Shown piece after piece: positions 18,035-41,750 of a stretch of 64,000 nt of DNA. Position numbers and translations under genes: made by a program. The notes under the pieces are model-generated. The model ran no database searches, was not told the DNA's origin, and saw only the letters and a program-made list of their open reading frames with translations. Every line of letters begins with the position of its first letter. Position 1 is the first letter of the stretch. Origin of the DNA: Gammaproteobacteria bacterium (lineage in GTDB: Bacteria > Pseudomonadota > Gammaproteobacteria > Eutrophobiales > Eutrophobiaceae); NCBI GenBank assembly GCA_004297165.1, contig SCUJ01000006.1:1052464-1116463 (forward strand), read 5' to 3'.

Positions 18035-18311
18035 CCCGGCGGTCAACACGGTCCCGCGCAATCGGCGCTGCTCGCCGCTTGCACGAGCTGGTTACCTTGG
18101 ACGTTGAGGCTGTAGAAAAAGCCTATTTTGAAGGAAGCATCAAGGTAATTCGATATCAGGTTCATTCGCTATGAATTTAGAGTAATGTTGTTGCCACCAG
18201 ACAATAAAATATTACCTCTAAAGCGTTTGATGCGCCTGTGGCAATGTGTTTGACGCGGATCTGGAATAATATCTGCTTGCGTCAATTTTACAAATCACCC
18301 TGTTTTCGTAC

Positions 18312-19094
18312 TTGTTCTACAGGCTCATTAGCCGCCAAGGAGGTTCGGTGAATCGCCTACACTTCACGCCCCCTTTCTGTCCCAGTGCGCTACCGTCGTG
18401 GGGGTGCCCGCATTGCAGTGATGGCGCACTCGCGCTCGTCAAGAAATCACTACGAGTCGAAGAGACTTCGGAATCCAAAAAAGACCGAAGTCACCCGGAC
18501 TGGGATCCGGAATGGATTAGGCAGAGATTTTCTATTCTGTTGCGATGCGGTCAATGTCACGAGCCTGTTTTTGCCGTTGGTAACGTGCGGTTAAAGGAAG
18601 ACCATGATGATGTCCACGGTTGGTCTTTGGCTGATGCGTTGGTCCCAACATTCTTTGAGCCCGCACCGCCCGTTATTCGGATTCCACCAGCTTGCCCAAA
18701 GGAAGTGGGTGCTGAAGTCACGGGGGCAAGCGCGTTGTACTGGTCAAGCCCATCCTCTGCGGCCAATCGAATCCGCGCTGCTATCGAGAGGCTTATGGAT
18801 GATCGCGGTATTTCTAGGAAAGGCAAGACTAAGAATGGAAAGTTCGTCGATCTCACTCTGCACGCCAGAATCGAGCGATTCGCAACAAAGAATCAAGAAG
18901 TCGGTCAAACGTTACTCGCCATCAAATGGTTGGGAAACACCGGAAGTCATTCAATGGACCTGACGGCAGACGATATGCTCGATGCGTTCGAACTACTCTT
19001 GCATGCTCTCGAAGAGATTTACGAGTCGAAATCCTTTCGTCTTAAGAAGCTTGCATCTTCAATCATCAAGAAGAAAGGCCCCGTTACAAAATGA
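18312..19094 (+). CDS. Hypothetical protein: N-terminal C4 zinc ribbon (CPHC...CGQC) plus a C-terminal region with a DUF4145/HEPN-like K-x2-GN-x3-H signature
   Basis: 260 aa. CxxC-x33-CxxC near the N-terminus. C-terminal ...LLAIKWLGNTGSHSMDLTADDMLDAFELLLHALEEIY... resembles the R..GN..(A)H core of DUF4145 (Pfam PF13643), recalled from memory, not searched. Confidence 0.45.
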   Translation: MFYRLISRQGGSVNRLHFTPPFCPSALPSWGCPHCSDGALALVKKSLRVEETSESKKDRSHPDWDPEWIRQRFSILLRCGQCHEPVFAVGNVRLKEDHDDVHGWSLADALVPTFFEPAPPVIRIPPACPKEVGAEVTGASALYWSSPSSAANRIRAAIERLMDDRGISRKGKTKNGKFVDLTLHARIERFATKNQEVGQTLLAIKWLGNTGSHSMDLTADDMLDAFELLLHALEEIYESKSFRLKKLASSIIKKKGPVTK

Positions 19095-19376
19095 AAACGG
19101 CTAACCCGGCAGTCTGAGGGACCTCCACGAATTCATGTCCCAAAGCTCTCTGCTTGAGCCCTTGAGAGAAGACCCGTGATGGCATTACTGAGAGCGGTTC
19201 ACAAAAGCGTCGTAATTGGCCGTCTCCAGAGTCCCCGCCCCAGGAAGGGTATCGACAGAACGTGACAGCGAAACTCGGTATTAGCTAGTTTTTAACGGTG
19301 CAGGCCACTCTCACGTGCTGCCAGGCCGAGTAGTCGTGTTGGGCTGAATGGAATGAAGCCCAACATTATTATTTCT

Positions 19377-19406
19377 GCGTGGGCACGAAAAACGTGCCCA
19401 CCCTAC
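19377..19406. repeat. REP-like palindromic element copy 1 (GCGTGGGCAC-GAAAAAC-GTGCCCACCCTAC)
   Basis: Perfect 8-bp inverted repeat with a 7-nt loop plus a conserved CCTAC tail. Three copies in the window. Confidence 0.6.
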
Positions 19407-19422
19407 CCTGCTGAAGGATGCT

Positions 19423-20112
19423 GTGGGGCTCTGGCAGTTCGCTGAACCTTGCCTCTATTATCCCTATCACGATCATTTTGAAAAGGTTGCGACATCGCTT
19501 GAGCGTATCTGTCGCGAGGGCAACAAGGAAGACATGGAAACTTGGGGGCGCATTTCAGCCCTTGCCTCCCTGACGGGTCATATCGACTTTGCCCATTTGC
19601 TTGGCGCATTGAACAAACTGGATATTACCGAAGCGTGGCAGGGGGCAGCGAGTGTTTGGACCCACCCTAACAATATCAAACAACACCGCGAGCAATGCCT
19701 TGCAGGTATCGAAGCGGGACTGAAAGAAGACATCTCTCATGCAGCGGCAGTCGCTCGACAAGTAGACAAAATCTTCCGGGATAATGCTCCACCGACCCCC
19801 ATCCCGATAGAATTGGTTCGGCTTTGCTTTAGCGTGTTCGAAAACGATAGCGAAAACAAACATCACCGCCTGTTTGGATTTGACGACTGGCTCAATGCCA
19901 CTTCGCAGCGCGACCCGGAGCTCGCCTTAGCCGCAACCGAAATTTACCTAGCCTATATTAGTCGTACCAAACCATATTTTTATGACCATGAAAATCGACT
20001 TGTCCAGCTAATGACCAGGCTTTTTGCTGAAGCTGAGGAAAGGGAAGAATCCGATCAAGGTGTAATGCTTAAACGCGTAGTATCAGTTCAAGATATACTG
20101 TTATCATTGTGA
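19423..20112 (+). CDS. Hypothetical protein (predicted alpha-helical, no recognisable domain)
   Basis: 229-aa ORF in the islet. Lies directly upstream (97 nt) of the orphan higA-like gene. Confidence 0.4.
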   Translation: MGLWQFAEPCLYYPYHDHFEKVATSLERICREGNKEDMETWGRISALASLTGHIDFAHLLGALNKLDITEAWQGAASVWTHPNNIKQHREQCLAGIEAGLKEDISHAAAVARQVDKIFRDNAPPTPIPIELVRLCFSVFENDSENKHHRLFGFDDWLNATSQRDPELALAATEIYLAYISRTKPYFYDHENRLVQLMTRLFAEAEEREESDQGVMLKRVVSVQDILLSL

Positions 20113-20208
20113 GTGAATTCTATCGACGATTGGCTAAAGGCCGCCGAGAGACAATAAGTCAGCTCTCGTGATAACGAGTAAATAGTTGACTACCATTAAA
20201 GAAATATC

Positions 20209-20508
20209 ATGACCAAGAGAGACATTTCACCTATTCATCCCGGCGAGATCCTGCTGGAAGAATTTCTTTTGCCGATGGGTATTTCCCAATATCGCCTGGC
20301 AAAAGATATCAGCGTACCTCAACGTCGCATAAGTGAAATTGTCCAGGGAAAACGCTCGATTACTGCCGACACTGCCTTGCGCCTGGGTCGTTATTTCAGG
20401 ATGGAGGCGCAATTCTGGCTAAATCTCCAGTCTCGTTTCGATCTCCTGAATGCTGAAACAGAGCTGGCCAAACGGCTGGATAAAGAAGTCGTCCCACATG
20501 CTGCTTGA
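20209..20508 (+). CDS. higA: HigA-family addiction-module antitoxin (XRE-type HTH)
   Basis: 99 aa; ...GEILLEEFLLPMGISQYRLAKDISVPQRRISEIVQGKRSITADTALRLGRYF... is the characteristic HigA HTH. No RelE/HigB-like ORF nearby. Confidence 0.8.
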   Translation: MTKRDISPIHPGEILLEEFLLPMGISQYRLAKDISVPQRRISEIVQGKRSITADTALRLGRYFRMEAQFWLNLQSRFDLLNAETELAKRLDKEVVPHAA

Positions 20509-20609
20509 TAAAACGGATTATAACAATCCAACAACGATTTTTTCGGCGAGTGAAATCTGGATTTTGCTGCACCGCATCCTGGCTTGATTGTCGATATCCG
20601 CGTGGGCAC

Positions 20610-20640
20610 CAACAGCGTGCCCACCCTACGAAATCTGGAT
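20610..20640. repeat. REP-like palindromic element copy 2 (GCGTGGGCAC-CAACAGC-GTGCCCACCCTACG)
   Basis: Same family as 19377-19406. Lies between the convergent higA and fdx genes, overlapping the fdx stop. Confidence 0.6.
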
Positions 20641-20882
20641 TATCCGTGGATCCGATCGTATTTCGCTTGTAGATCTTCCTGGGTCTCCTCCCAGTCCGGA
20701 TTGGGGACGATGCAGGCGGAGGGACAGACGGCCCGGCATTGCGGTTCGTCCTCGGCGCCCACGCACTCGGTGCATTTCATCGGGTCTATCCGATAGGGTT
20801 CGCCGGCGGTGATTGCCTCGTTGGGACAGGGATCCACGCAGGCATCGCACATCGTGCAGTCGGCATTAATCATCAAGGCCAT
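20640..20882 (-). CDS. fdx: 2[4Fe-4S] ferredoxin (YfhL/Fdx-type, 80 aa), probable electron donor to benzoyl-CoA reductase
   Basis: Two CxxCxxC...CP cluster motifs (CTMCDACVDPCP; CTECVGAEDEPQCRAVCP). Immediately downstream of bcrD, as in the Thauera bcrCBAD-fdx arrangement (established knowledge). Confidence 0.8.
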   Translation of the reverse strand: MALMINADCTMCDACVDPCPNEAITAGEPYRIDPMKCTECVGAEDEPQCRAVCPSACIVPNPDWEETQEDLQAKYDRIHG

Positions 20883-20956
20883 TGGTCAGTCTCCACAATA
20901 ATTCTTTTTTCGGGTTGAAACAGCTTTTCATAATGACTCGCGTATTGCAATTCCTG

Positions 20957-21796
20957 TCACGCCGCCCGGTTCGCGGCCAACTCCTCCAGCCGCGTATGCC
21001 GGTACGCGCCCCAGAGCGCGGCGCCGATCGCGCCGGCATAGATCGAATCGGGATGGGACAGGACCTTGACGTCCATCTTCTGCGCCGTGACCGCCTCGTT
21101 GAGTGCGGCGATCAGGCCGACATCGGTGGCGAGCCCGCCGGTGGTCATGACAATCCCCTCCTTGACCTTGATCGATTTAAGTAGTTTGGCCATGCGATCC
21201 GCCATGGAGATGTGGATCCCCTTCAGGATGTTGCTCGCGCTGATGCCCCGCGAGACCATGTTGATGACATCGGTCTCGGCCAGCACCGCACAGATGCTGC
21301 TCACGGCCTCCGGGTCATCGCTCTTCAGCGAGAGCTCGCCGATCTCGTCCTGGGCGACGCCGAGATAACGGGCGATGTTCTCCAGGAACTGGCCGGAGCC
21401 CGAGGCGCACTGGCTGGTCATCTTGTAACCGAGCACCTTGCCGCGGGGATCAATCTTGATGGCCCGGCCGTGCAGCGCGCCGATATCCATCACCGACAGG
21501 GTCTGGTCGTTGAGATAGACCGCGCCGCGCGCATGCGTGGTCATGGAGTAGAAATGGCCGGTGCTGTAGGCGATGCTCTCGCCCTCGCCGGTCGTCGCGC
21601 AATAATCGATGGCCTTACGCTCGAGATGGTTGCGCTTGAGGACCTCGTCATAGGCCTGCTCAGTAAGCGCGAACGGGTCCTGTGTGCGGATCCGGTAGCA
21701 ACTCTTGTCCAGCCATTCGGTCTTGTCGCCCGTCGTTCTGAACAAGGCCAGCTTTACCGCGCTGGCGCCGATATCTATGCCCGCTGTCGTGACCAT
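20957..21796 (-). CDS. bcrD: Benzoyl-CoA reductase subunit D (BcrD/BadG; BadF/BadG/BcrA/BcrD ATPase family)
   Basis: Start MVTTAGIDIGASAVKLALFR is an acetate/sugar-kinase-fold ATPase N-terminus. About 280 aa as for Thauera BcrD. The start is 1 nt after the bcrA stop. The ORF track start at 22078 is an over-extension. Confidence 0.8.
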   Translation of the reverse strand: MVTTAGIDIGASAVKLALFRTTGDKTEWLDKSCYRIRTQDPFALTEQAYDEVLKRNHLERKAIDYCATTGEGESIAYSTGHFYSMTTHARGAVYLNDQTLSVMDIGALHGRAIKIDPRGKVLGYKMTSQCASGSGQFLENIARYLGVAQDEIGELSLKSDDPEAVSSICAVLAETDVINMVSRGISASNILKGIHISMADRMAKLLKSIKVKEGIVMTTGGLATDVGLIAALNEAVTAQKMDVKVLSHPDSIYAGAIGAALWGAYRHTRLEELAANRAA

Positions 21797-21797
21797 A

Positions 21798-23114
21798 TCA
21801 GTGCTCCATAACCGCCCGGTAGGCGAAGGTGGCGGCCCCGAGGGAGCCGGTGTAGATCGAATCGGGATTGATGTTGATGGTGACCTTGCCGTAGTTCTCA
21901 TCGACCAACTCACGCAAGGCGTTGACGGCGGCCTGGTTCTTGGCGACGCCGCCGGTGAAGGTGAACTGATCGGTGATGCCGCCGGAGCGGGCGATGATGG
22001 ACATGGCGCGCAGGATGATGGAGCGATGGAGACCGCCGAGGATATCCGCGCGGTCCTCGCCGAGCGCGAGCCGATCACGCAGCTCCGCGCCCGCGAACAC
22101 CGTGCAGGTGGAGTTTATCTTCACCTGTTTCTTGGCCTTTAGCGCCATCGGGCCCAGCTCGTGCAGACCGATCTTCATCTCGTCAGCGATGTAGCCAAGA
22201 TAGCGGCCGCAACCGGCGGCGCAGCGGTCGTTCATTTGAAAATTCTGCACGATGCCGTTCGCGTCCACCTGGATCGCCTTGGTATCCTGCCCGCCGATAT
22301 CCAGCACGGTGCGCGTGCCGTGGTACATGATATGCGCGCCGAGGCCGTGGCAGAGGATCTCGGAACGGATGTGCTCCTTGGAGAACGGCAGGCGGACGCG
22401 GCCGTAGCCGGTGCCGATCACATAACTCTCCTCCAGCTCGACGGCGAGCGCCCGATCCACCGCCTGCTGCATCGAGGCGCTGGACATCCTGTCCTCCCCA
22501 GCCTCCGTCAACAAATTCTCCAGTCCGCGGACGATCTTGCCCTTGAGATCCGCGGTCGGCGGGCGGTTTTCCACCTCGATGATGGCCTTGTCGTATACGG
22601 CGATGACCTGATCGAAGGGCAGATTCGCCTGCTTGCATACCTCGCCCGCGACGGCCAGATAAAAGGAACCGGCGATGTCGCGGAAGAAATCGGATTTGCG
22701 TTCGGCCCCAGGCTGGAACAATGCGCCGGCCTGGTCCGCGACCCGGCGGAAGATCTCGTCCAGCGCCTCGCGCACGGCCGCCTCCTTGTCCTTGAAGCGC
22801 GCCGCCGTGGCGAACTCGAGGCAGGTCCGGCGCAGGTCCTGCAACTGCTCCATGAACTGTTCGCGCCGGAAATTCCGCTCCAGATCGCGCAGGAAGGCAT
22901 CGATATCCACCATGCCGGATTGCGACTGTTCCAGCTCCCGGCGCAGGAGGGTGAACCGGGAGTCGATATAGGCCTCCTGCTTCGAGACCGCGGCGGCGGT
23001 GTCGTAGTTGGATCGGGAGTTGGTGATGCCGCGCCCCAGGACATCCTTGTTCTCGTCCATGAGGATGGCCTTGGTGGTGGTGGAGCCGAGGTCGATGCCG
23101 ATAAAACATTTCAT
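21798..23114 (-). CDS. bcrA: Benzoyl-CoA reductase subunit A (BcrA/BadF ATPase)
   Basis: Start [21 protein letters not shown]; about 439 aa. Second, non-identical ATPase subunit of a class I BCR. Confidence 0.8.
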
Positions 23115-23133
23115 CTCTGGTTCTCCTCTGCGG

Positions 23134-24432
23134 TCACGCGGCGCGCCGCTTCTGATCGACCATCTGGAAATAGCTCTCCAGCCGGTTCTTGACATTGGCG
23201 GCGGAGAAATAGCGCGGGTCCACGAGGTCGGTCTCCACGAACGCGGCTGGTTTCCCGGTGCGCTTCTCCACCTCGCGCATCATGAGCAACTGTCCCGCGG
23301 AGAAGCTGTTGCAGCTCTTGATCGAGTTGATCAGCAGGCCGTCCGCCTCATAGTCGTTGATGTAGTTCACGAGCATGTCGACCCGTTGCGGCAGGTTCAT
23401 GTTGGTGTAACATCCGAGGCAGTAATCGGCGAGCGATTCCAGCGGGTGTTCCGGGTCGTGCCGGAAGCCGAAATCGTAGACCCCGCCCACCTTCGTGTAG
23501 GAGCTGGCTACGACCACCGCGCCGTCGTCATAGAACATCTTCCAGAACTCGCGGAGATTGGTGTAATTCGGCGGGCCTTCGACCACGAGCCGGTATTTCT
23601 CCTCGCCCATGTTACCCTCCGGCGTGACCGGCCCGAGGCCGGCGTCGATGCGGGCCTGGATCTCCGCCCGCAGCAGCCGGTAATACTCCGTCGCATCCCG
23701 CGTCCCACGGAAGGCGGAGAAGATCGGGCCCACGTAATAGACACCGCCGAAATAGGCATCGATCGGCGAGGGCTTGTGGCGCGCGGTTTGCAGCACCCAG
23801 ACCAGGTCATCCTCCGCCCTGGCGGATTCCCGCAGGTATTCGCGCAGGCGATCGATGTCGAACTTCACGCCGCTGATCCGCTCCAGCGTCGGGATGACCT
23901 CCTCCTTCAACTGCTTGACCACATACTTGCGCATGTTCTCGGTGATCTTGCCGCCGCCCTGGTAGGGCACATGGAGCATTACGGTCGGGCACTTGTACTG
24001 GTGGCGCAGCAGCTCGAACCACTTGAGGAAGGTGAAACAACCGGTATACGACAAGAGCAGGATGTCGGGCTCCGGCAACCGTTCCCCGGTCGGGCCGATG
24101 TTGCCGTTGTAGACCATGCCGAGGTCGGTCTTCACATAGGTGCAGACGTCCTCGGAATGGCCGGCGCGCTCGGCGTCGAAGATGAAATTCCCCGACTTCT
24201 TGCGCATGCCCATCTGCAGGGCATTGATCTCGGGAAAGTTGCCGACCATGTCGAAGCACATCACCAGCTCGTTGATGTTGCCGGGAACGAAGGTGTAGGA
24301 GACCTTCTCGCCGGTCTGCGGCGCCCGCGCGAGACGCGTGAAATTGCCGGCGATCATCTCCTTCTGCTTCTCCATCGACTGATCCTTCTGGGCCTCGCGG
24401 AGATCGATCTTTTTCGTGGCGACTGTAGTCAT
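23134..24432 (-). CDS. bcrB: Benzoyl-CoA reductase subunit B (BcrB/BadE; 2-hydroxyglutaryl-CoA dehydratase D-component family)
   Basis: 432 aa, HgdB-like. Position and size match Thauera BcrB. Confidence 0.8.
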
Positions 24433-25610
24433 GCGTTTTCACCCCACAGTTTGATGGAATCGGCGAAGGTGCCCGCCTGTTCGCGGATCGGCTGCATCTG
24501 CCCGGAGTTCTCCGCGTATTTGAAAGCGATATAGGGGATGCCCGCGGCATTGAGGGCATCCTGGAGCATCGGGCGCTCCAGCAGGGCCGGGTCGCAGAAG
24601 CTCGGCGCGGCGAAGATAACGCCTTCCGCCCCGCTCTTGCGCACGGCCTCGACCAGGTACTGCCCCTTGTCGGCCTCGATCGGCTCGTAGGTGGCCGAGG
24701 TCTTGGTGGAATGATGCAGGAAGGCGCGCGCCAGGGCCTCGATCGGGTCCCCCGTCTCGCTGACCGGTTCCTGCATCCACCGGTTGATCAGCATGAAGTC
24801 GTCATCCACGACATAACAGCCGGCGAGTTCGAGCGACTTGATGAGATTGAGCGGCGGTTGCTCGCAGAACATCCCGCTGAGGACGATCTTGCAGTTGTCG
24901 CGGCGTGGACGATCCGCGCTCCTCGCGGCCTTGATATAGGATTCGACAAGGACATTGTGATCCTCCACGGGGAGCAGCATCCCGGCGCGGGAGAGCAGAT
25001 AGGCTTCTGTGGCCGGAACCTTCCAGGGTTCTGCGGCGCGCAAAATGTAAAGTTCCTTGATTAATTCGCGGTTGCGGTTGAAGAGCACAATGGATACGCG
25101 CAGCGCCGCATCCGTGATCTCGTTGCCGCTGAGATTTTCGAAATCGTGCCGCAGCTCCTGCAATTCATTGACATAGAATTCGCCGCCGACCCGATCGTCA
25201 TAATTCTGCGGCATGTCGTAGTAATGCGCGTACATGTCGGGGCGGATCAGTTGCAGCATCCCGGTGAGATTCCGGATGACGTCGCAGATGCTGGGGAAGA
25301 GCATGCCGTCGACAAAATCCAGCCGTTTAGTCAGGAACAATTCGATGGTCGAACGGGGTATCCGGCAGATGTAACTTTGATAATACGCGTCGCCCTGGAT
25401 GACCTCGATCTGATCGCCGCCGCCAAAGATGCCGAGCGGCAGCATGCCCGCGGCGTGGATCAACTCCCGCGGCACATAGATGGGCATGAAACCGACGACC
25501 TTGCGATCCGGTTCCGCCGCCTTCCATTCCCTTGCGGCGGTGAAGTGCAGGTCTTCAAACAGGGACTGGCAGCGCTGGATGATCTGGTCGGTGGTGGCCA
25601 TGTCTCTCAT
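24429..25610 (-). CDS. bcrC: Benzoyl-CoA reductase subunit C (BcrC/BadD; HgdA/HgdB-like)
   Basis: 393 aa. 4-nt overlap with bcrB. Order C-B-A-D as in Thauera aromatica. Confidence 0.8.
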   Translation of the reverse strand: MRDMATTDQIIQRCQSLFEDLHFTAAREWKAAEPDRKVVGFMPIYVPRELIHAAGMLPLGIFGGGDQIEVIQGDAYYQSYICRIPRSTIELFLTKRLDFVDGMLFPSICDVIRNLTGMLQLIRPDMYAHYYDMPQNYDDRVGGEFYVNELQELRHDFENLSGNEITDAALRVSIVLFNRNRELIKELYILRAAEPWKVPATEAYLLSRAGMLLPVEDHNVLVESYIKAARSADRPRRDNCKIVLSGMFCEQPPLNLIKSLELAGCYVVDDDFMLINRWMQEPVSETGDPIEALARAFLHHSTKTSATYEPIEADKGQYLVEAVRKSGAEGVIFAAPSFCDPALLERPMLQDALNAAGIPYIAFKYAENSGQMQPIREQAGTFADSIKLWGENA

Positions 25611-25680
25611 CTCTTAATGAATCTCTTCGTTATTGTTCCGCTTTGCGGTATAACAGGCAATCAACAAAGTAGAGCAAGTT

Positions 25681-25695
25681 TAATTCCAGGAATTA
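25681..25695. promoter_or_regulatory. Perfect palindrome TAATTCC-A-GGAATTA in the AT-rich divergent bcrC/korA promoter region; candidate operator
   Basis: Seen directly in the 177-bp intergenic region, which also contains several TATAAT-like runs (ggtataataatactataatact). Confidence 0.3.
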
Positions 25696-25787
25696 CATGG
25701 GATTGTCAATAATGGTATAATAATACTATAATACTACTTAGTCAATCAGGACCAACAATCCCCGATCCGATCCGGAGTTTATACATT

Positions 25788-27536
25788 GTGAATTCGAACA
25801 GTCAGAGTCATTTAGTCTCCACTGGCGCCCTTTCCGTCGCCGTGGTCGGCAGTGGCGGGGCCGGGGCCATCACGACCGGTACATTATTACTCGAGGCCGC
25901 GTCACGACAGGGGCATTACGGCATTCTCACCCGCACCGTCGGTCCCCAGATCCGCGGGGGCGAGGCCGCCGCCCTGGTGCGCCTCGGCACGCAGCCCATC
26001 GATTGCATCGGCGACGGCTTCGACATCCTGCTCGCCATGGACTGGAATAATTTCGATCGCCTTGCCGCCGAGATCCCGCTCTCGACGAAAAGCTTGATCA
26101 TCGCCGACCCTGAACAGGGCGATGTACCCGAGGTCGTCCGCGACACCGGGGCCGTTATCTGCAACCTGCCCATCGGCGAGCTGGCGAAGGCCGTTAACAA
26201 GGGCCGGCCCAACATGCTCGCGTTCGGCATTATCGCCGAGTTGCTGGACCTGCAAACCGCATCGGTCGGGGCCGTGCTTGAAAAGCAACTCGCGAAGAAG
26301 GGCGAACAGGCCTTGCAGAGCAGCCTGGAAACCGTGCGTGCGGGCCGCGCCGCTGCAACCGGACTCGCCAAGCGAACCCTGGCGGGTCAAGGCTCGCGGC
26401 AGGACGGCCGCTGGTTGATCACAGGCAATCATGCCTGCGGCTACGGGGCGTTGCGGGGCGGGATCCGCTTCGTGGCCGCCTATCCCATCACCCCGGCGAC
26501 CGAGGTCCTGGAATGGCTGTCCTCCGGGCTTATGAAGTCCGGCGGGCGGCTGGTTCAGGCGGAGGATGAATTGGCCTCCATTAACATGATCGTCGGCGCC
26601 TCCTACGGGGGCATCCCATCTCTGACCGCGACCTCCGGCCCCGGCTTGTCTCTCATGATGGAAAGCCTGGGGCTTGCGGTAGCCGCCGAGATCCCGCTAG
26701 TCGTGATCGATGTGATGCGCGTCGGGCCTTCCACGGGCATCGCCACCAAGGCCGAGCAGAGCGACCTGAACATCGCCGTCTACGGATTCCATGGCGACGC
26801 CCCGCACGTGGTCGTGGCGCCGAACTCGGTCGGTGATTGCGTCGCAACCACGCAGTGGGCCGTGCAACTGGCGGAGTCCATGCAGGCGCCGGTGATTGTC
26901 CTCACCGATCAGTACATGGGACAGACCAAATCCATCATCGATCGACCTGCCTTGGCGGAGGCCGGGGCCGGGCGGCTCACGTGCGACAACCCCGCGCCCG
27001 ATTACGCGCGTTATGCCAATACCGAGAGCGGCATCTCGCCCATGACGATCCCTGGAACTCAGGGCGGACAATACACCGCGGACGGTCTGGAACATTCGGT
27101 CAAGGGCATCCCCTCGACGCGGGCGGAAGATCACGAACAGCAGATGGAGAAGCGCCGGCGCAAGATCCATGACTTCGACTACGGCGAGCGGTGGGCGGAT
27201 GTGGAGGGTGCGGGTCGGCACGCCATACTGACCTGGGGCTCGACCACCGGGGCGGTGCGCGAGGCGCTCGATCAATTGCGGCGCACTGGCGTGGATGACA
27301 TCAAACTCATATCGCTCCGCCTGATCACGCCGGCACAGCCGGAGAAATTCGCGGAAGCGATCGCGGGCGTCGACCGGGTCCTGGTCATCGAACAGAATCA
27401 TTCCGGGCAACTGCGGCATTTTCTGCGCGCCCACTACGACCTGCCCAAGGACATCGAATTTTACAACCGGGCCGGCCCCATCCTGTTCCGGCCGGGCGAG
27501 ATTGGCGACTGGATCAAACAATGGAGGTCGGCATGA
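25788..27536 (+). CDS. korA: 2-oxoglutarate:ferredoxin oxidoreductase alpha subunit (fused gamma/alpha)
   Basis: 582 aa. N-terminal catalytic gamma-like domain (AVVGSGGAGAITTG) then the alpha pyruvate-flavodoxin-oxidoreductase core. Paired with a TPP-binding beta subunit. Adjacent to the bcr genes, as KorAB regenerates reduced ferredoxin in Thauera. Confidence 0.85.
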   Translation: MNSNSQSHLVSTGALSVAVVGSGGAGAITTGTLLLEAASRQGHYGILTRTVGPQIRGGEAAALVRLGTQPIDCIGDGFDILLAMDWNNFDRLAAEIPLSTKSLIIADPEQGDVPEVVRDTGAVICNLPIGELAKAVNKGRPNMLAFGIIAELLDLQTASVGAVLEKQLAKKGEQALQSSLETVRAGRAAATGLAKRTLAGQGSRQDGRWLITGNHACGYGALRGGIRFVAAYPITPATEVLEWLSSGLMKSGGRLVQAEDELASINMIVGASYGGIPSLTATSGPGLSLMMESLGLAVAAEIPLVVIDVMRVGPSTGIATKAEQSDLNIAVYGFHGDAPHVVVAPNSVGDCVATTQWAVQLAESMQAPVIVLTDQYMGQTKSIIDRPALAEAGAGRLTCDNPAPDYARYANTESGISPMTIPGTQGGQYTADGLEHSVKGIPSTRAEDHEQQMEKRRRKIHDFDYGERWADVEGAGRHAILTWGSTTGAVREALDQLRRTGVDDIKLISLRLITPAQPEKFAEAIAGVDRVLVIEQNHSGQLRHFLRAHYDLPKDIEFYNRAGPILFRPGEIGDWIKQWRSA

Positions 27537-28372
27537 ACGAGACTGCGGTTGCGCTCAACAAACCGACCCCGGCGGATTACCGCTCGGGGATCAAGCCGAT
27601 CTGGTGCCCCGGTTGCGGGGATTACTCCGTGCTGCTCGAGATCACCAAGGCGCTGGCCGCGCTCGAACTCCCGGCGGCGGAGGTCGCCATCGTCTCCGGG
27701 ATCGGTTGTTCCTCGCGGATCCCGGCCTACAGCAGTTGCTACGGGTTTCATGGGGTGCACGGGCGCGCCCTGCCGGTGGCGACCGGCCTCAAGGTCGCGC
27801 GTCCGGACCTTACCGTGATCGCGACCGGCGGCGACGGCGACGGATTCTCCATCGGCGGCAATCATTTTCTCCATGCCTGCCGGCGCAATGTCGATATCAC
27901 TTATATCGTCATGGACAACCAGGTCTATGGCATGACCAAGGGCCAGGCCTCGCCCACCACCGATCCCGACTGGGACAGCGTCCTGACGCCGGGCGGCACC
28001 GGGATACGCCCCTTTCAGCCGCTGGTGATCGCACTCGCCTCGGGCGCGAATTTCGTCGCCCGCGGCTTTGCCGGCGATCCGGCGGGCACGACCGAGATGA
28101 TCATCGAGGGGATCAAGCACCCCGGATTCTCCTTCATCCAGATCCTGAGCCCCTGCGCCACCTTCCGCCCGGATCAGCGGGAATGGCGCAACCTGGTCCG
28201 GCCGGCCCCGGTCCCCTTCACCACCGATCCGTCCCGCGCCGCCAACCGCATCATGACCGATGACGGCTTCAATCTCGGGATCCTCTATCGCGGCGATCGC
28301 CCGCCCTATGAATCAGGACGGAAGTCCGAGCCCAGGGATATTGATGCGATCGCGGAGGAATTCGTCCTATGA
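27533..28372 (+). CDS. korB: 2-oxoglutarate:ferredoxin oxidoreductase beta subunit (TPP-binding)
   Basis: MNETAVALNKPTPADYRSGIKPIWCPGCGDYSV... and the GDGDGFSIGGNH TPP motif. ATGA overlap with korA. Confidence 0.85.
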   Translation: MNETAVALNKPTPADYRSGIKPIWCPGCGDYSVLLEITKALAALELPAAEVAIVSGIGCSSRIPAYSSCYGFHGVHGRALPVATGLKVARPDLTVIATGGDGDGFSIGGNHFLHACRRNVDITYIVMDNQVYGMTKGQASPTTDPDWDSVLTPGGTGIRPFQPLVIALASGANFVARGFAGDPAGTTEMIIEGIKHPGFSFIQILSPCATFRPDQREWRNLVRPAPVPFTTDPSRAANRIMTDDGFNLGILYRGDRPPYESGRKSEPRDIDAIAEEFVL

Positions 28373-28890
28373 CTGCCGGGCCTCGACCAGCGAATATCGC
28401 TGAGTTACTGACGCATGCACTCGCATTGGAGATTGAGGCCAGCGAGCGCTACGCGGATCTCGCCGAGCAGATGAAGTCGCATAACAACCTTCGCATTGCG
28501 AAGTTGTTCGGCAAGATGGCGGACATCGAGAAACTCCATGTGGACCACATCCGCAAGATGATCGAACGGCATGGGGTCAAACTGTCAGAACCAGCGAATT
28601 ATTACTGGACCTCTCCCGAAGGACCGGAAACCACAGACCCGCTCGACCTGCATTACCTCATGACCCCGCGCCAGGCGTTGGAACTCGCACGACACAATGA
28701 AGCGCGGGCGCGCGATTATTATGCCCATCTCGCCACGGATGCGCAGGATGGAGAAACCCGCCGCATGGCGCAAGAGTTGGCGGCGGAGGAAGAAGAGCAT
28801 GTCGCCCTGATCGACGCCTGGCTCGCCAAGGTCCCGGAGACCGACGCGGACTGGGACGAGGACGATGACCCGCCGTTCTTGCAGGATTAG
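28369..28890 (+). CDS. Ferritin-like/rubrerythrin-family diiron protein (no rubredoxin domain)
   Basis: Two E...ExxH diiron half-sites (EIEASERY...EKLHVDH; ELARHNE...EEEEHVAL). 4-nt overlap with korB. Confidence 0.7.
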   Translation: MTAGPRPANIAELLTHALALEIEASERYADLAEQMKSHNNLRIAKLFGKMADIEKLHVDHIRKMIERHGVKLSEPANYYWTSPEGPETTDPLDLHYLMTPRQALELARHNEARARDYYAHLATDAQDGETRRMAQELAAEEEEHVALIDAWLAKVPETDADWDEDDDPPFLQD

Positions 28891-29004: not shown

Positions 29005-29553
29005 TTAGCCCTGTATCGCAGCGGGCATGACCACGTTGATTATCTTTTCAACGTCCGGCCGATCGGCGGGCCCCCGACCAACATGATGCAGCCGGACGAT
29101 CCCGCCGGGGTCGATCAGGACATCGCCGCCGCGTTGCATCACATCGGCGCCGGCCCGTCTCAGGCCCTGTCCTTTCCGTAATTCGCGCACATAGGCCAGC
29201 CAACTCGCGGGTCCCCAGACATCCATGAACGAGGCCCGCAACATGCCATAGGCCCGATAAAGCCCCCGCGTTTCGTCGATGAGCAGCGGCCACTCGATCC
29301 CGGTCTCCTCGATATAGGCACGGCAGAGGAATGGTCGGTCAAACGTAACCACGGCAACGCGCACATCCAGTGCCTCCAGATCCGCCTGCCGTTCGCGCAA
29401 CTGCGCGAGATGCCCACGGCAGGGCAGTCAACCGAGATGCCGGTGAAAGACGAGCAGGAGCCAGTGGCCGGAGAAATTCTGCAGGCAGCAGATCCTGCCC
29501 TGGAAGTCAGGCAAGGAAAATGGCGCAGCGGGCCGGTCGGTTTGTAACTGCAT
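29005..29553 (-). CDS. Peroxiredoxin-like (AhpC/TSA_2/Redoxin-family) thiol-disulfide oxidoreductase, probable selenoprotein with U-x-x-C motif (in-frame TGA at 29428-29430)
   Basis: Two track ORFs (29428-29715 and 29005-29400, both minus) are in the same frame, separated only by a TGA. Joined protein: MQLQTDRPAAPFSLPDFQGRICCLQNFSGHWLLLVFHRHLG-U-LPCRGHLAQLRERQADLEALDVRVAVVTFD... The TGA sits exactly where Prx-like proteins have the first Cys of CxxC, and a stem-loop follows it. Confidence 0.6.
29386..29422 (-). promoter_or_regulatory. SECIS-like stem-loop beginning 6 nt downstream of the in-frame UGA (7-bp lower stem, internal loop, 6-bp GC-rich upper stem, AGUU apical loop)
   Basis: Minus-strand RNA: UGA cugcc-CUGCCGU-gggcauc-UCGCGC-AGUU-GCGCGA-ACGGCAG. 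Apical loop about 26-29 nt after the UGA, as in bacterial SECIS elements. Confidence 0.5.
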
Positions 29554-29653
29554 GGTATCCTGCAAAGACTGGTCGATATAAATTTCACACATATATATGC
29601 CAAGTCGGGCGGACTGTATAGAATTCAAAATAAATTTATAAAGGGAAACCGCC

Positions 29654-31303
29654 ATGACCAGAATGACCTGCGGCACCGCCATCGTCAAAACCCTCCAACA
29701 ATACGGCGTCGACACCGTCTTCGGCGTTCCCGGCGCGCAGACCTACGACTTCTTCGATGCCATTGCCCAGGCCGATCCGCCGATCCGCTACATCGGCGCT
29801 CGGCATGAGCAGAGCACCGCCTACATGGCCTTCGGTTACGCCAAGGCGACCGGCCGGGTCGGCGTCTATTCCGTGGTGCCGGGACCGGGCATGCTCAACT
29901 CGGCGGCCGCCCTCTGTTCCGCCTATGGCGCGAGCACGCCGATACTCTGTGTCACAGGCCATGTGCCGACCCAATTCATCGGTTCGGGCAAGGGTGCCCT
30001 GCACGAGTTGCCCGATCAACTCGCGACCCTGCGCTCGCTTACGAAATGGGCGGGGCGCATCGATCACCCCGCGCAGGCCCCGGAACAGGTCGCCGAGGCC
30101 TTCCGGCAGATGCTTTCCGGACGCCCGCAACCGGCCGCGCTGGAGATCCCGTGGGACATTCTGGCCATGAGCGGCGAGGTCGATCTGCCCCCGGCCGTGG
30201 CCCCGCTCCCGGCGCCGACGCCGGACCAGGCGCAGATCGACGCGGCCATCGCCCTGCTCAAGGCGGCGCGCAATCCCATGATCATGGTCGGCGGCGGGGC
30301 CTTGCACGCCGCGCGGGAAGTGCTGGCGCTCGCGGAATTGCTGCAAGCCCCCGTGGTCTCCTTTCGCAGCGGCCGAGGCATCGTGAGCGACGCGCATCAT
30401 CTCGGCTTCAACTGCGCGGAAGGCGCGTTGCGCTGGCCGGAAACGGATGTCCTGATCGGGATCGGTTCGCGCATGGAACTGTCCTGGGCCCGCTGGACGG
30501 GACCGGCGCGCCCGCAGAACCTGAAACTCATCCGCATCGACATCGATCCCAAAGAGATGATCAGGCACCGCGCCGACGCCGCGATCCTCGCCGATGCCGT
30601 AACCGGGACCGCTGCCCTCACGGCCGCCTGCGCGGCGGAAGGCATCCTGGCGCCATCGCGCGAGGCGGAATTTTCGCGCCTCAAACATAACCGTCGCGCC
30701 GAGATTCAAAAAAAACTGCAACCCGAGGCGGATTATTTGCGGGTGATTCGAGAGCGCCTTCCCCAGGATGGATTTTTCGTGGAGGAGGTCTCCCAGGTGG
30801 GGTTCTCCTCCTATGTCAGTTTCCCGGTTTATTCGCCCCGCACCTTCGTCACCTGCGGCTACCAGGGCACACTCGGATTCGGCTTTCCCACCGCGCTGGG
30901 CGTCAAGCTGGCCCATCCGGATCGCCCGGTCGTCGCCATCAGCGGCGACGGCGGCTTCATGTTCGGGATGCAGGAACTCGCCACAGCGGCGCAGTACGAC
31001 ATCGGCCTGGTGACCATCGTTTTCAACAACCATTCGTATGCGAACATCCGCCGCGACCAGAAGCGCTTTTATCAGGGTCACCTGCTGGGGGCCGATCTTC
31101 AAAATCCCGACTTCGTCGCACTGGCGCGCGCCTTCGGGGTGGACGGTTACCGGGTTGATTCGCCGGCCGCCCTCGGCCCCTGCCTCGAACAGGCGTTGGT
31201 CAAGGGCGCCCCGGCCTTGATCGAGGTGGAGGTTGCAATCGACTCCGAGGCCTCGCCCTGGCAATTCCTCATGCCGGGGACGGCCTACGGCGCCGCGCCA
31301 TAG
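29654..31303 (+). CDS. Thiamine pyrophosphate-dependent enzyme (acetolactate synthase large subunit/benzoylformate decarboxylase/Xsc-like fold), substrate unknown
   Basis: 549 aa. N-terminal TPP pyrimidine-binding domain, central domain, and C-terminal GDGGFMF...NN TPP-binding motif. Confidence 0.8.
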   Translation: MTRMTCGTAIVKTLQQYGVDTVFGVPGAQTYDFFDAIAQADPPIRYIGARHEQSTAYMAFGYAKATGRVGVYSVVPGPGMLNSAAALCSAYGASTPILCVTGHVPTQFIGSGKGALHELPDQLATLRSLTKWAGRIDHPAQAPEQVAEAFRQMLSGRPQPAALEIPWDILAMSGEVDLPPAVAPLPAPTPDQAQIDAAIALLKAARNPMIMVGGGALHAAREVLALAELLQAPVVSFRSGRGIVSDAHHLGFNCAEGALRWPETDVLIGIGSRMELSWARWTGPARPQNLKLIRIDIDPKEMIRHRADAAILADAVTGTAALTAACAAEGILAPSREAEFSRLKHNRRAEIQKKLQPEADYLRVIRERLPQDGFFVEEVSQVGFSSYVSFPVYSPRTFVTCGYQGTLGFGFPTALGVKLAHPDRPVVAISGDGGFMFGMQELATAAQYDIGLVTIVFNNHSYANIRRDQKRFYQGHLLGADLQNPDFVALARAFGVDGYRVDSPAALGPCLEQALVKGAPALIEVEVAIDSEASPWQFLMPGTAYGAAP

Positions 31304-37909: not shown

Positions 37910-39364
37910 ATGTCTGTCGATGTGCCAAATGCGTTGCCCGATTCTCTGCTGTCGCAGTTGAGCGATTTCCTCGAATCGCAGATGGGCCTGCACTTTCCGG
38001 AAGAGCGCTGGCGCGATTTGGAAAGCGGAGTCGCCGCCGCCGCCCGGGACTTTGGCCTTCGGGACGCGGAATCCTGCGCCAGGTGGCTTTTATCCGCACC
38101 CCTGGCGCGCAACCGCGTCGAAGTCCTGGCCTGCCACCTGACCGTCGGCGAGACTTATTTCTTTCGCGAGCAGAGAAGTCTCGAAGTCCTCAAGGAGCAA
38201 ATTCTGCCCGAACTGCTCCGCTCCGGGATCGGGGCAGAGCGGCGCCTTCGAATCTGGAGCGCGGGCTGCTGCACCGGCGAGGAGCCGTACTCCATCGCCA
38301 TGCTTCTGGACCAGCATATCCCCGCTCCCGTGGCGAATAACCTCTCCCTCCTGGCGACGGACATCAACCCGCGGTTCCTGAGCAAGGCGGCGCAGGGCGT
38401 GTACGGCGAGTGGTCGTTCCGCAGCACGCCGGGATGGATGAAAGAGCGGTATTTCAGGAAAAGGAAAGACGGGCGCTACGCCCTGCTGCCGCAGATCAGG
38501 AACCGTGTGACATTCTCGTACCTTAATCTAGCAAACGACGTTTACCCGTCGCTCCTGAACAACACCAACGCGATGGACGTGATCTTCTGCCGCAACGTGT
38601 TGATGTATTTCAGTGCGGATCGGGCAAAGCAGGTGGCCGAGGGTCTTTACCGTTCACTCGTCGACGGCGGGTGGTTGATCGTCAGCCCGGTGGAAAACTC
38701 GAACACTCTGTTCTCCTCGTTTTCGGCAATCCAGTTCCCTGGCGTCGTGGTGTACCGGAAGATCGTGGGGGCCGCCCAGCGAGTTGCCATCATGGGCAAC
38801 CAGACCTCCGCGTTTTTCCCGGCAGCCGAGAGCATGAACCAGCCGGTCCCGGCTCCCTGGACAAGATCCGTTGCGCCGGACGAGACGCCGCCTGCGCCGG
38901 GCGTCCCGGAAATAGGGGATGCAGGCATAAAGCCTGCCCAGGGAAAGGACGACGGGACTGCATTTTCAAGCGCCGCGCGCCGTTGCGCAAACGAGGGCAG
39001 GCTCGCCGAGGCCGCCGAGTGGTGCGAGAAGGCGATTGCAGCCGACAAGCTGAATCCGGCGCACTACTATCTGCTCGGGACCATCCGGCAGGAGCAGGGG
39101 CAGCCGGAGGCGGCGCGGCGGTCGTTGCTACGCGCCTTATATCTCGATCCCGAATTCGCACTTGCCCATTTCGCTCTGGCGAACATCGAGTTGTCGCAAG
39201 GCCGGTGCATTCAGGCCGAGCGACATTTCTCGAACTCACTTGCGTTGCTGCGGGCGCGGCCGCATGACGAATCTCTCCCGGAATCGGAGGGACTGACCGC
39301 GGGGCGGTTGGTCGAGATCGTCGCCTCCATCCTGGCAAGCCAGCCGCGCACCCGGGTGGCGTGA
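37910..39364 (+). CDS. cheR: Chemotaxis protein methyltransferase CheR with C-terminal TPR repeats (WspC-like)
   Basis: CheR_N plus a SAM-dependent MTase (RIWSAGCCTGEEPYSIAM) plus C-terminal TPRs. Confidence 0.85.
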   Translation: MSVDVPNALPDSLLSQLSDFLESQMGLHFPEERWRDLESGVAAAARDFGLRDAESCARWLLSAPLARNRVEVLACHLTVGETYFFREQRSLEVLKEQILPELLRSGIGAERRLRIWSAGCCTGEEPYSIAMLLDQHIPAPVANNLSLLATDINPRFLSKAAQGVYGEWSFRSTPGWMKERYFRKRKDGRYALLPQIRNRVTFSYLNLANDVYPSLLNNTNAMDVIFCRNVLMYFSADRAKQVAEGLYRSLVDGGWLIVSPVENSNTLFSSFSAIQFPGVVVYRKIVGAAQRVAIMGNQTSAFFPAAESMNQPVPAPWTRSVAPDETPPAPGVPEIGDAGIKPAQGKDDGTAFSSAARRCANEGRLAEAAEWCEKAIAADKLNPAHYYLLGTIRQEQGQPEAARRSLLRALYLDPEFALAHFALANIELSQGRCIQAERHFSNSLALLRARPHDESLPESEGLTAGRLVEIVASILASQPRTRVA

Positions 39365-39383
39365 GCGTGAGAGACATGCCCGC

Positions 39384-40010
39384 ATGAGCACGCATAAACC
39401 GCCGCTGCGAAAGAAGGTAGCCATCGACTGGCGCGAGGTCCATCGGCGCCTTGAGATGGCCCGCGCTGACGCCGAGTGCATATGGGCGCCGGACGCCAGG
39501 GTGACCCAACGGGTACTAAAGGCCAGGGCGCAGGAACTGGCCAGGGAACCAGAAAAAGTGCAGCTCGCCGATGCGCAGGTGGAAATCCTGGAATTTATCC
39601 TGGCGCAAGAGAGGTATGCGGTCGAATCGCGACATGTCCGGGAGGTCTATCCTCTGGAGAATCTGACGCCGCTCCCCTGCACGCCGCCATTTGTGCTCGG
39701 CATCATCAATCTGCGCAGCGAGATTGTCTCAGTTATCGATATTAAAAAGTTTTTCGATCTGCCGGAGAAGGGGCTGACCGATCTCAACAAGGTCATCGTT
39801 CTCCAGTCCGGGCCGATGCTTTTCGGCATTCTTGCGGACATCATCGTCGGTGTGCGCCGGATCCGGGCGGCGGAAATCCAGCCGTCCCTGCCAACGCTCT
39901 CCGGTGTCCGGGAAAAATATCTGCGAGGCATCACCTCGGATCGAACGGTCCTGCTCGACGCGGGGAAACTCCTGGCGGACGAGCAAATCATCGTGCAGGA
40001 ACAGGTTTGA
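39384..40010 (+). CDS. cheW: CheW-like protein (WspD-like second coupling protein)
   Basis: 208 aa with a CheW domain (…YAVESRHVREVYPLENLTPLPCTPPFVLGIINLRSEIVSVIDI…). Confidence 0.8.
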   Translation: MSTHKPPLRKKVAIDWREVHRRLEMARADAECIWAPDARVTQRVLKARAQELAREPEKVQLADAQVEILEFILAQERYAVESRHVREVYPLENLTPLPCTPPFVLGIINLRSEIVSVIDIKKFFDLPEKGLTDLNKVIVLQSGPMLFGILADIIVGVRRIRAAEIQPSLPTLSGVREKYLRGITSDRTVLLDAGKLLADEQIIVQEQV

Positions 40011-40071
40011 GATAGAGCCGCCGGGACCGCGGACCATGAATGGCAACGCATACAAATAAGGGGAAATAATC

Positions 40072-41709: not shown

Positions 41710-41750
41710 CGGCATGCCGCGACAACTTAAATTATGACGGAGATCAAGCC

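Follow-up and report, generated by a model that had tools for sequence, protein, structure and literature searches.

Bacterial selenoproteins with a UxxC motif, named 'Prx-like thiol:disulfide oxidoreductase' or 'Prx-like protein', were described in previous studies (Kryukov & Gladyshev 2004; Zhang et al. 2005-2008; PMC1088965, PMC1794560, PMC13188914) and have been reported in Geobacter spp., Syntrophus aciditrophicus, and Desulfotalea (PMC1794560). A gene in the window (the whole stretch of 64 kb analysed here, from a gammaproteobacterial MAG) almost certainly encodes a selenocysteine by an in-frame TGA, and its product has in common with these selenoproteins the distant homology to peroxiredoxins (PF00578), the SECIS directly downstream, and the thioredoxin-like UxxC instead of the TxxU of Sec-peroxiredoxins (PMC1088965, PMC13188914). 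The groups in which such proteins were reported (PMC1794560) are also those that dominate the related loci found here, and the motif and the taxa suggest that the window protein belongs to the same subfamily as the type sequence WP_010940744.1; the published work, however, pools several Prx-like subfamilies. An earlier note on this DNA had called Prx-like U-x-x-C selenoproteins an established bacterial class, in agreement with these reports (PMC1088965, PMC1794560).

Among the Prx-like selenoproteins, selenoprotein L (SelL) occurs in aquatic eukaryotes (PMC2398784). The NCBIfam family NF040769 is named after it. In work by Shchedrina et al. from 2007, SelL reportedly has a UxxU motif that forms a diselenide and a eukaryotic SECIS in the 3'-UTR. 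The window protein differs in both respects: its motif is UxxC, in the form U-L-P-C with one in-frame TGA instead of the two Sec residues of UxxU, and its SECIS is of the bacterial type and in frame. Among solved structures, human prostamide/prostaglandin F synthase PRXL2B (PDB 9us9 and 9usa) is the best match both by sequence (E 1e-5) and by fold, the latter in a comparison with the model of P0006, a Cys-form homologue of the window protein (Foldseek E 7e-11, rmsd 1.8 Å, TM 0.76/0.84). The CVVC of PRXL2B aligns with the ULPC of the window protein, both being Prx-like2 proteins with an active-site dithiol-type motif, but PRXL2B is eukaryotic, is ~23% identical, and has Cys instead of Sec. It reduces prostaglandin endoperoxide, which is not known from bacteria, and a substrate shared with the window protein is unsupported. 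Canonical peroxiredoxins, such as AhpC, BCP, and AhpE (PF00578), have the same fold and a significant Pfam match with the window protein. In the alignment to AhpE (5c04), HRHLG-U-LP-C stands opposite HPLAF-T-GI-C and the Pro is absent; U42 takes the column of the Prx Thr, and C45 that of the catalytic (peroxidatic) Cys. The PxxxTxxC active site of canonical peroxiredoxins is thus replaced by HRHLGULPC, a thioredoxin-like dithiol-type motif with Sec42 in place of the catalytic Thr.

With U replaced by C in the query, a profile search gave 188.6 bits (cut-off 120) for NF040769, "SelL-related redox protein", with a match that spans residues 10-174 of 182 and profile positions 4-172 of 173. Pfam AhpC-TSA (66.6 bits) and AhpC-TSA_2 also matched, so that the Prx-like AhpC/TSA_2 family named in the earlier note was well chosen, and the NCBIfam family places the protein more precisely. 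The window protein has the same length and the same HRHLG-[U/C]-LPCR motif as the members of NF040769, among which the Cys form P0006 bears the family's name at NCBI. In the AF2 model of P0006 (pLDDT 85), residue 42 is located immediately before helix 43-53, so that the U/C-x-x-C of the window protein would open the first helix of the thioredoxin fold, as in members of NF040769. No difference from the family was found; the window copy is its Sec form in a gammaproteobacterial MAG, unlike most retrieved members, which are from Desulfobacterota-type lineages. A literature search under the name 'SelL-related redox protein' found no papers. The window protein is a cytoplasmic 182-residue thioredoxin-fold member of the Prx-like2/SelL-related family.

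The reading frame and its public annotation

We traced the minus-strand frame from the ATG at 29553 to the TAA at 29007-29005 and found one internal stop only, the TGA at 29430-29428, and no frameshifts. The complete selenoprotein gene (29005..29553, minus strand) has 182 codons and the TAA stop; read through, it gives 41 residues, U, and 140 residues, a product of 182 amino acids that contains ...LLLVFHRHLG-U-LPCRGHLAQLRERQADLEALDVRVAVVTFD.... Translation confirmed what had been noticed earlier, that two minus-strand open reading frames lie in one frame and are split by this TGA only, and the frame, the translation, and the Pfam and NCBIfam matches agree with the proposal that read-through yields one thioredoxin-fold protein. 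The mechanical list of open reading frames divides the gene into 29428-29715 and 29005-29400. Alignments to homologues begin at residues 1-9 of the window protein and run to about residue 175, which supports a probable start at ATG 29553 rather than at the upstream GTG 29715. An AGGA at 29558..29561 (minus strand), 4 nt 5' of this ATG, was read directly in the sequence and is a possible ribosome-binding site.

The in-frame UGA (29428..29430, minus strand) corresponds to selenocysteine at residue 42, as indicated by the TGA conserved in relatives and the Cys of Cys-form homologues. Three codons on, the codon of Cys45 (29419..29421, minus strand), the resolving Cys of U-x-x-C, is a Cys codon in 80/80 retained loci, and the redox motif of the window protein is U42-L-P-C45. 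We consider it highly probable that this is a single 182-residue gene in which TGA 29430-29428 is read as selenocysteine.

GenBank gives the locus as TAJ94029.1 (P0174; 29005..29427, minus strand), a 140-aa 'redoxin domain-containing protein' with the sequence MPCRGHLAQ..., which takes the CTG that immediately follows the TGA as its first codon and has neither Sec42 nor the N-terminal strands. Taken literally, this entry and the many database entries called in the same way would mean two products, with translation stopping at the UGA and a separate redoxin-domain protein of 131-140 aa starting from CTG 29427 or TTG 29400. Such a downstream piece, however, would have neither the N-terminal β-strands of the thioredoxin fold nor the first residue of the active site, and the 41 codons before the TGA keep their frame across relatives and evolve under purifying selection. 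Moreover, the Cys-form homologues are single proteins of ~180 aa, and the called starts in homologues vary by entry (111-150 aa), as gene-caller artefacts would. Two separate products are therefore extremely unlikely, and TAJ94029.1 is a truncated call of the selenoprotein gene. Similar calls were observed among the best 120 database relatives, most of which are C-terminal fragments of 111-150 aa cut at the TGA. About 10 of the 120 are full-length; of those aligned, five have C and five have 'W' at the U position, and in P0003, where the 'W' was checked, the codon is TGA.

Conservation of the TGA codon

The TGA is found at the same position of WLLxVFHRHLG-U-LPCR in the best 80 of 268 related loci (80/80, different species), whose lineages include Desulfuromonadales, Geobacter, Desulfobulbaceae, Syntrophobacteraceae, Acidobacteria, Planctomycetota, Rokubacteria, and Limnocylindria. 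Four closer metagenomic contigs (L083-L086), the closest relatives of the window, have the same TGA. A gene boundary or a frameshift in homologues, which the earlier note had named as evidence that would speak against a selenoprotein, was looked for at this position, and the conserved TGA was found instead in the 80 retained loci and the four relatives. HRHLG-[U/C]-LPC is present in all homologues. In the Cys-form homologues P0006, P0009, P0010, P0019, and P0022, the U position aligns with the first Cys of CxxC, and at the nucleotide level the codon is TGT in L087 and TGC in L090-L092. The alignment, checked against these Cys forms and human PRXL2B, thus bears out the earlier placement of the TGA at the first Cys of CxxC. 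Against five relatives, dN/dS was 0.13-0.24 upstream of the TGA and 0.16-0.17 downstream; the protein is thus conserved and under purifying selection to either side of the UGA, as would be expected of a selenoprotein.

A single transversion would be enough to turn a Cys codon (TGC/TGT) into TGA and inactivate a CxxC redoxin, and the public annotation does not show the gene as intact. A pseudogene of this kind is nonetheless exceedingly improbable, given that the same TGA recurs across several phyla in the best 80 of the 268 related loci and in the four close relatives, that dN/dS stays at ~0.16 downstream of it, that the frame holds no frameshifts or extra stops, and that the SECIS hairpin is kept by compensatory changes.

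TGA terminates 25 of the 39 window genes and is the commonest ordinary stop there; hence, the recoding is site-specific. Some gene callers rendered homologues with TGA as Trp, and the UGA might be read through as another amino acid, such as Trp or Cys, by near-cognate decoding or an altered genetic code. Besides the frequent use of TGA as a stop in the window, several observations make this very unlikely: the position matches the redox-active Cys, where a Trp would have no activity; a SECIS-type hairpin accompanies the UGA and is lost where the codon is Cys; and the family is curated as SelL-related, with Prx-like UxxC selenoproteins being established (PMC1088965, PMC1794560). We also examined the 64-kb window for other genes split in the same frame by TGA. 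All three candidates were ordinary: one is antisense to an AcrB-like gene, one is a gene boundary ahead of cheR, and the third consists of a DUF59-like gene with a MaoC-like gene after it. The scan is weak because its GC3 filter would have missed the real selenoprotein gene, the N-terminal GC3 of which is 0.65.

The SECIS hairpin

In the bacterial SECIS model, the apical loop has 3-9 nt with a G at loop position 1 or 2, the stem has 4-16 bp, the distance from the UGA is 16-37 nt, and the free energy is -7.5 kcal/mol or lower (PMC13188914). The hairpin of the window lies within all four published limits (PMC13188914), with a 4-nt loop, a 6-bp stem, a 25-nt spacing, and a core of -9.4 kcal/mol. 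The conserved core (29393..29408, minus strand), delimited by covariation, invariance, and a covariance-model match, consists of a 6-bp stem, 29408-29403 paired with 29398-29393, and the apical loop A-G-U-U at 29402-29399, and is contained in the codons for L-A-Q-L-R-E. The loop has its G at position 2, followed by U, and begins 26 nt after the A of the UGA, which leaves 25 nt in between. As folded in the window's lineage, the full stem-loop (29379..29427, minus strand) has a minimum free energy of -28.2 kcal/mol. Its lower helix pairs 29427-29416 with 29392-29382, could extend by two further pairs as far as 29379, and includes a 7-bp CUGCCGU/ACGGCAG register that starts 6 nt after the UGA; a 7-nt internal loop (29415-29409) is situated between this helix and the 6-bp stem UCGCGC/GCGCGA.

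This is the layout of the SECIS-like hairpin claimed in the earlier note, and the upper stem and AGUU are conserved family-wide, but the lower 7-bp stem is limited to one lineage. The lower helix is identical in L001, a second species, and in L083-L086, and is absent in other phyla; the 7-bp stem is without covariation support because it is invariant within the window's own gammaproteobacterial lineage. The claim that the geometry is that of bacterial SECIS elements stands, the hairpin being conserved and covarying as well as within the published limits.

When the window hairpin alone was folded against shuffles, the z-score was -1.22 and 26/200 shuffles folded equally well; furthermore, a model-compliant perfect hairpin of 6 bp or more comes after 6.6% of all TGA triplets in the window, and an equally stable one after 3.7%. 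The single-sequence fold is not beyond chance, and the significance of the SECIS therefore rests on the comparison across species. In this comparison, 95% of the cells of seven pairs are paired, and four pairs are changed on both sides (89 cells). The covariation score is 0.419 versus 0.138 in shuffles, none of 500 shuffles being as high, and the slid controls reach at most 0.155. This signal, which comes from related sequences and lies inside coding sequence, could partly reflect shared ancestry; the slid-partner and Cys-form controls argue against this. All 81 sequences share the G-U-U of the loop and the two closing G-C pairs, synonymous positions included, and the Leu codon in the loop is UUG in 81/81 sequences, whereas other nearby Leu codons vary.

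The hairpin is absent in four independent Cys forms, with energies of -2.1 to +6.4 kcal/mol, in contrast to a mean of -9.0 kcal/mol (range -12.0 to -4.4) in the 80 Sec forms. A covariance model trained on 79 other species, with the window and L001 left out, has one strong match in the window, at 29380-29430 on the minus strand (63.1 bits, rough E-value 4e-25); an Rfam scan of the 64-kb window gave no matches. The hairpin is a conserved, covarying SECIS-type element tied to the Sec forms. In the first helix, amino-acid choices such as I-T-Q-L-R-D, L-S-Q-L-R-E, and L-L-Q-L-Q-Q change in concert so as to keep the RNA stem, and the family illustrates cleanly how a SECIS can lie within coding sequence.

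Decoding, proposed catalysis, and gene neighbourhood

Neither tRNA-Sec nor selA, selB, or selD was found in the 64 kb analysed, of which 40 open reading frames were scanned, or over the next 10 kb past its end, where the genes are ordinary catabolic ones only. ARAGORN found no tRNA in the 64-kb window and no tRNA-Sec in 82 related or flanking loci. The selection on the gene suggests that the source organism decodes selenocysteine in a SelB-dependent manner. By analogy with characterised bacterial systems, the hairpin would offer its A-G-U-U loop, 25 nt downstream of the UGA, to SelB carrying Sec-tRNA(Sec); the Sec-tRNA(Sec) would then be delivered to the UGA at 29430-29428 in place of release factor, and the codon would be recoded as selenocysteine during translation. 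Sec42 is predicted to occupy the N-terminal end of helix 1, where thioredoxins have their attacking Cys. Its most likely target is an oxidised substrate, which may be a disulfide, a sulfenic acid, or a (hydro)peroxide; a selenenylsulfide between Sec42 and Cys45 would form and then be reduced by a thioredoxin-type reductant.

The gene adjoins a rubrerythrin (28369-28890, plus strand) and, beyond it, KorAB (25788-28372, plus strand) and four benzoyl-CoA-reductase-type subunits (20957-25610, minus strand), in accordance with the rubrerythrin-like protein and benzoyl-CoA reductase module described earlier. The block bcrCB-korAB-rubrerythrin-selenoprotein is syntenic in the window and L001, with 77-91% protein identity, and the rubrerythrin-selenoprotein pair occurs in four more contigs. 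Neighbourhood clustering of the 80 loci revealed no conserved gene neighbour and none common to more than 10 loci, so that the context gives no family-wide functional clue; the only frequent 'clusters' are alternative-frame open reading frames that overlap the selenoprotein gene. PADLOC gave no matches on the open reading frames of the low-GC island of the window.

The selenoprotein may be linked to the neighbouring rubrerythrin and benzoyl-CoA reductase genes; we regard as unlikely the stronger proposal that, in this gammaproteobacterial lineage, it serves the anaerobic aromatic-degradation module as a dedicated accessory. As such an accessory, the Sec redoxin together with rubrerythrin would serve the oxygen-sensitive benzoyl-CoA reductase and 2-oxoglutarate:ferredoxin oxidoreductase by peroxide removal or by the repair of oxidised thiols. 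If this were true, anaerobic benzoate degradation in these organisms would depend on selenium.

The window gene is a new, mis-annotated member of a family that, like its UxxC motif, is already catalogued, Prx-like UxxC selenoproteins having been known since 2004-2005, and it leaves the current understanding of selenoproteins unchanged. The entries of this family, TAJ94029.1 included, are mostly cut at the Sec codon or given Trp there; as most are cut, the active-site residue and ~40 N-terminal residues are missing from protein databases. Selenoprotein counts that are based on such gene calls are too low, for the source MAG and for the other lineages found here.

Reading frame and conservation of the UGA codon

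The minus-strand reading frame extends from an ATG at 29553 to a TAA at 29007-29005, and its sole internal stop is the TGA at 29430-29428. The read-through product has 182 aa (MQLQTDRPAAPFSLPDFQGRICCLQNFSGHWLLLVFHRHLG-U-LPCRGHLAQLRERQ...), with selenocysteine as residue 42, whereas a mechanical ORF listing splits the gene into 29428-29715 and 29005-29400. Re-reading of the frame and folding confirmed the coordinates, the sequence, and the stem-loop geometry proposed in an earlier note. In GenBank, the locus is occupied by TAJ94029.1 (29005-29427, minus strand), a 140-aa "redoxin domain-containing protein" flanked by TAJ94028.1 (rubrerythrin) and TAJ94030.1 (TPP enzyme) (locus tags EPO31_075xx). 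Its N-terminus, MPCRGHL..., corresponds to the CTG immediately 3' of the Sec TGA; hence, the gene is annotated in a truncated form, without selenocysteine. The JGI and Logan calls from the same species are fragments of 119 or 131 aa.

The majority of the top 120 database relatives are C-terminal fragments of 111-150 aa because the gene calls cut at the TGA. About ten are full-length, and among those aligned, the U position is Cys in five, the correspondence to be expected if the earlier note was right, and "W" in five (P0003, P0005, P0007, P0016, and P0021). In the DNA of P0003 (locus L093:174-755), the codon behind the "W" is TGA; this Trp is the product of a gene caller's TGA = Trp code applied to the contig of an ordinary-code organism.

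A scan covering a single genome for each species yielded 268 loci that encode relatives, of which the best 80 were kept. All of these best 80 carry TGA at the same position in the motif WLL[LM]VFHRHLG*LPCR, and they come from Desulfuromonadales, Geobacter, Desulfobulbaceae, Syntrophobacteraceae, Acidobacteria, Planctomycetota, Rokubacteria, Limnocylindria, and one gammaproteobacterial MAG. The closest relatives of the window, this MAG (L001) and the metagenomic contigs L083-L086, share the TGA at 76-85% identity. In pairwise comparison with the window, the 33 codons preceding the TGA have dN/dS values of 0.13-0.24 and the 132 codons following it have values of 0.16-0.17, so both halves are under purifying selection as one frame. 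An altered genetic code is ruled out, since TGA terminates 25 of the 39 window genes and is their commonest stop; the recoding must therefore be site-specific. Elsewhere in the window, a same-frame TGA at 15090 was considered as a second Sec candidate and rejected as an ordinary stop between genes; the minus-strand ORFs in this region, named by eye from their translations, are DUF59/SufT-like (15088-15456) and MaoC-like (14620-15072 and 14207-14788).

The window contains no tRNA genes and no Rfam matches. Neither selA, selB, nor selD was found among the 40 window ORFs scanned, nor were sel genes found within 10 kb past the window end.

The hairpin downstream of the UGA

Folding reproduced the stem-loop described in the earlier note, with its 7-bp stem, internal loop, 6-bp stem, and AGUU loop. 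The lower helix includes a 7-bp CUGCCGU/ACGGCAG register beginning 6 nt past the UGA, followed by a 7-nt internal loop and the 6-bp upper stem UCGCGC/GCGCGA. The element conforms in every respect to a published model of bacterial SECIS elements (PMC13188914): an apical loop of 4 nt (AGUU; model, 3-9 nt), an upper stem of 6 bp (model, 4-16 bp), a G at loop position 2, followed by U (model, G required at position 1 or 2), a UGA-to-loop spacing of 25 nt (model, 16-37 nt), and a free energy of -9.4 kcal/mol for the core and -28.2 kcal/mol for the whole element (model, -7.5 kcal/mol or lower). The fold alone is unremarkable for 61%-GC DNA, with a z-score of -1.22 and 26 of 200 shuffles as good. In a simple scan, 6.6% of the 1,870 window TGA triplets precede a perfect, model-compliant hairpin (6 bp or longer), and 3.7% precede one as stable as that described here. 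Owing to this weak single-sequence signal, the case must rest on comparison with other sequences.

The window and the 80 Sec-form loci were aligned ungapped in codon register, and RNAalifold on these 81 sequences predicts exactly the upper stem. Standard pairs occupy 95% of the cells (7 pairs, 81 sequences), and two-sided changes occur in four of the seven pairs (89 cells); at pair 30-43, 61 sequences have C-G and 17 have G-C, and at pair 31-42, 40 have A-U, 22 have U-G, 8 have C-G, and 5 have G-C. The covariation score is 0.419 compared with 0.138 ± 0.013 after shuffling, and none of the 500 shuffles is as high, although this count is not a probability because shuffling ignores relatedness. 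Two further controls address this weakness. Sliding the partners by 1-3 columns gives a score of at most 0.155, and the hairpin is absent from four independent Cys-form genes (-2.1 to +6.4 kcal/mol), whereas the 80 Sec forms average -9.0 kcal/mol (range -12.0 to -4.4). The Cys forms lack it even where Q-L-R is kept because the Leu codon is then CUN. UUG encodes the loop Leu in every one of the 81 sequences, while codon choice varies for the Leu residues at alignment columns 1-3 and 10-12. No sequence departs from G-U-U in the loop or from G-C at the two closing pairs, even at synonymous positions. The stem is also kept through joint amino-acid changes, such as I-T-Q-L-R-D, L-S-Q-L-R-E, and L-L-Q-L-Q-Q. 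A covariance model built from the 79 other species, leaving out the window and L001, gave one strong window match (29380-29430, minus strand, 63.1 bits, rough E-value 4e-25), the next scoring 9.5 bits. The family-wide part is the upper stem-loop only; the lower helix is common only to the gammaproteobacterial relatives, without sequence variation.

Six lines of sequence evidence agree in indicating that the UGA is decoded, and the purifying selection and the maintained SECIS lead us to infer selenocysteine decoding in this organism. The selenoprotein reading of the earlier note is thus upheld by the conserved TGA, the Cys correspondence, the purifying selection, and the covarying hairpin. As in characterised bacteria, SelB·GTP·Sec-tRNA(Sec) most likely binds the G-U-containing apical loop, whose distance from the UGA in the A site of the ribosome would be kept constant.

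Protein family and active site

In family searches run with U replaced by C, the Pfam models AhpC-TSA and AhpC-TSA_2 scored 66.6 and 48.4 bits, respectively, and NCBIfam NF040769 "SelL-related redox protein", under which NCBI curates this exact family, matched over nearly the full length with 188.6 bits (curated cut-off, 120). The full-length relative P0005 (309 aa) is a fusion variant of the SelL-related family, in which the SelL-related domain is joined to an N-terminal extension of ~125 aa that begins like a signal peptide and includes a PF19135 domain. Among solved structures, the closest in sequence is that of human prostamide/prostaglandin F synthase (PRXL2B, PDB 9us9), with its active-site CVVC opposite ULPC. 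An AlphaFold model of the full-length Cys-form homologue P0006, 51% identical to the window protein, shows a thioredoxin fold (mean pLDDT 85) in which residue 42 directly precedes helix 43-53; PRXL2B is also the best PDB fold match of this model (rmsd 1.8 Å, TM 0.76/0.84). When the protein is aligned to AhpE, a canonical peroxiredoxin, Sec42 takes the place of the catalytic Thr and Cys45 matches the peroxidatic Cys; therefore, the motif is a thioredoxin-like U-x-x-C instead of the peroxiredoxin PxxxTxxC. With this Thr replaced, the protein does not belong to the canonical peroxiredoxins. The protein also differs from eukaryotic SelL, the motif of which is UxxU.

The earliest surveys of prokaryotic selenoproteomes described Prx-like selenoproteins with a thioredoxin-like UxxC and list them for Geobacter, Syntrophus, and Desulfotalea (PMC1088965, PMC1794560, PMC2398784), and a 2026 review counts "Prx-like thiol:disulfide oxidoreductase, PF00578, UxxC/UxxU" as a predicted family of high confidence (PMC13188914). 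The locus is a mis-annotated, newly found member of this already known selenoprotein family.

Genomic neighbourhood and proposed function

The gene is convergent with that of rubrerythrin (28369-28890), with no terminator-like site found between them. Preceding the rubrerythrin gene are korAB (25788-28372), for the KorAB 2-oxoglutarate:ferredoxin oxidoreductase, and, adjoining these, four class-I benzoyl-CoA-reductase-type (BcrAD/HGD-D-family) subunits (20957-25610). Together, 20957-28890 constitutes a Thauera-type anaerobic benzoate degradation set, syntenic with L001:1042-7506 (MAG RIFCSPLOWO2_02_FULL_56_15) at 77-91% protein identity. On the other side, a TPP-dependent enzyme gene diverges from the AT-rich upstream region, a 100-bp intergenic stretch (29554-29653) with one sigma-70-like site on the plus strand (29597-29624). 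The bcrCB-korAB-rbr-selenoprotein block is syntenic in L001, and the rubrerythrin neighbour recurs in L083-L086; no neighbour is conserved across the best 80 of the 268 loci, so the rubrerythrin/bcr association is lineage-specific. This association hints only weakly at a functional link with these neighbours, since the gene is convergent and not co-transcribed.

A low-GC island (17500-20900; GC 0.45-0.55 against a window mean of 0.61) separates the GNAT/Rrf2 genes from the bcr cluster and may be a foreign insertion; PADLOC gave no matches for its three ORFs (17567-18034; 18312-19094, with a DUF4145 domain; and 19423-20112). Within 37910-56001, a chemotaxis-type cluster (CheR, CheW, two MCPs, a CheA-like hybrid kinase, and CheB) is followed by three very large response-regulator/GAF/PAS/GGDEF-EAL proteins.

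Sec42, at the N-terminus of its helix, would act as the nucleophile, and the oxidised state would be a Sec42-Cys45 selenenylsulfide recycled by a thioredoxin-type reductant. Any specific substrate assigned to this bacterial family would probably be wrong. Since the CxxC of PRXL2B, the closest relative among solved structures, serves to reduce an endoperoxide, our best guess by analogy is that the protein functions as a thioredoxin-dependent peroxide or disulfide reductase.
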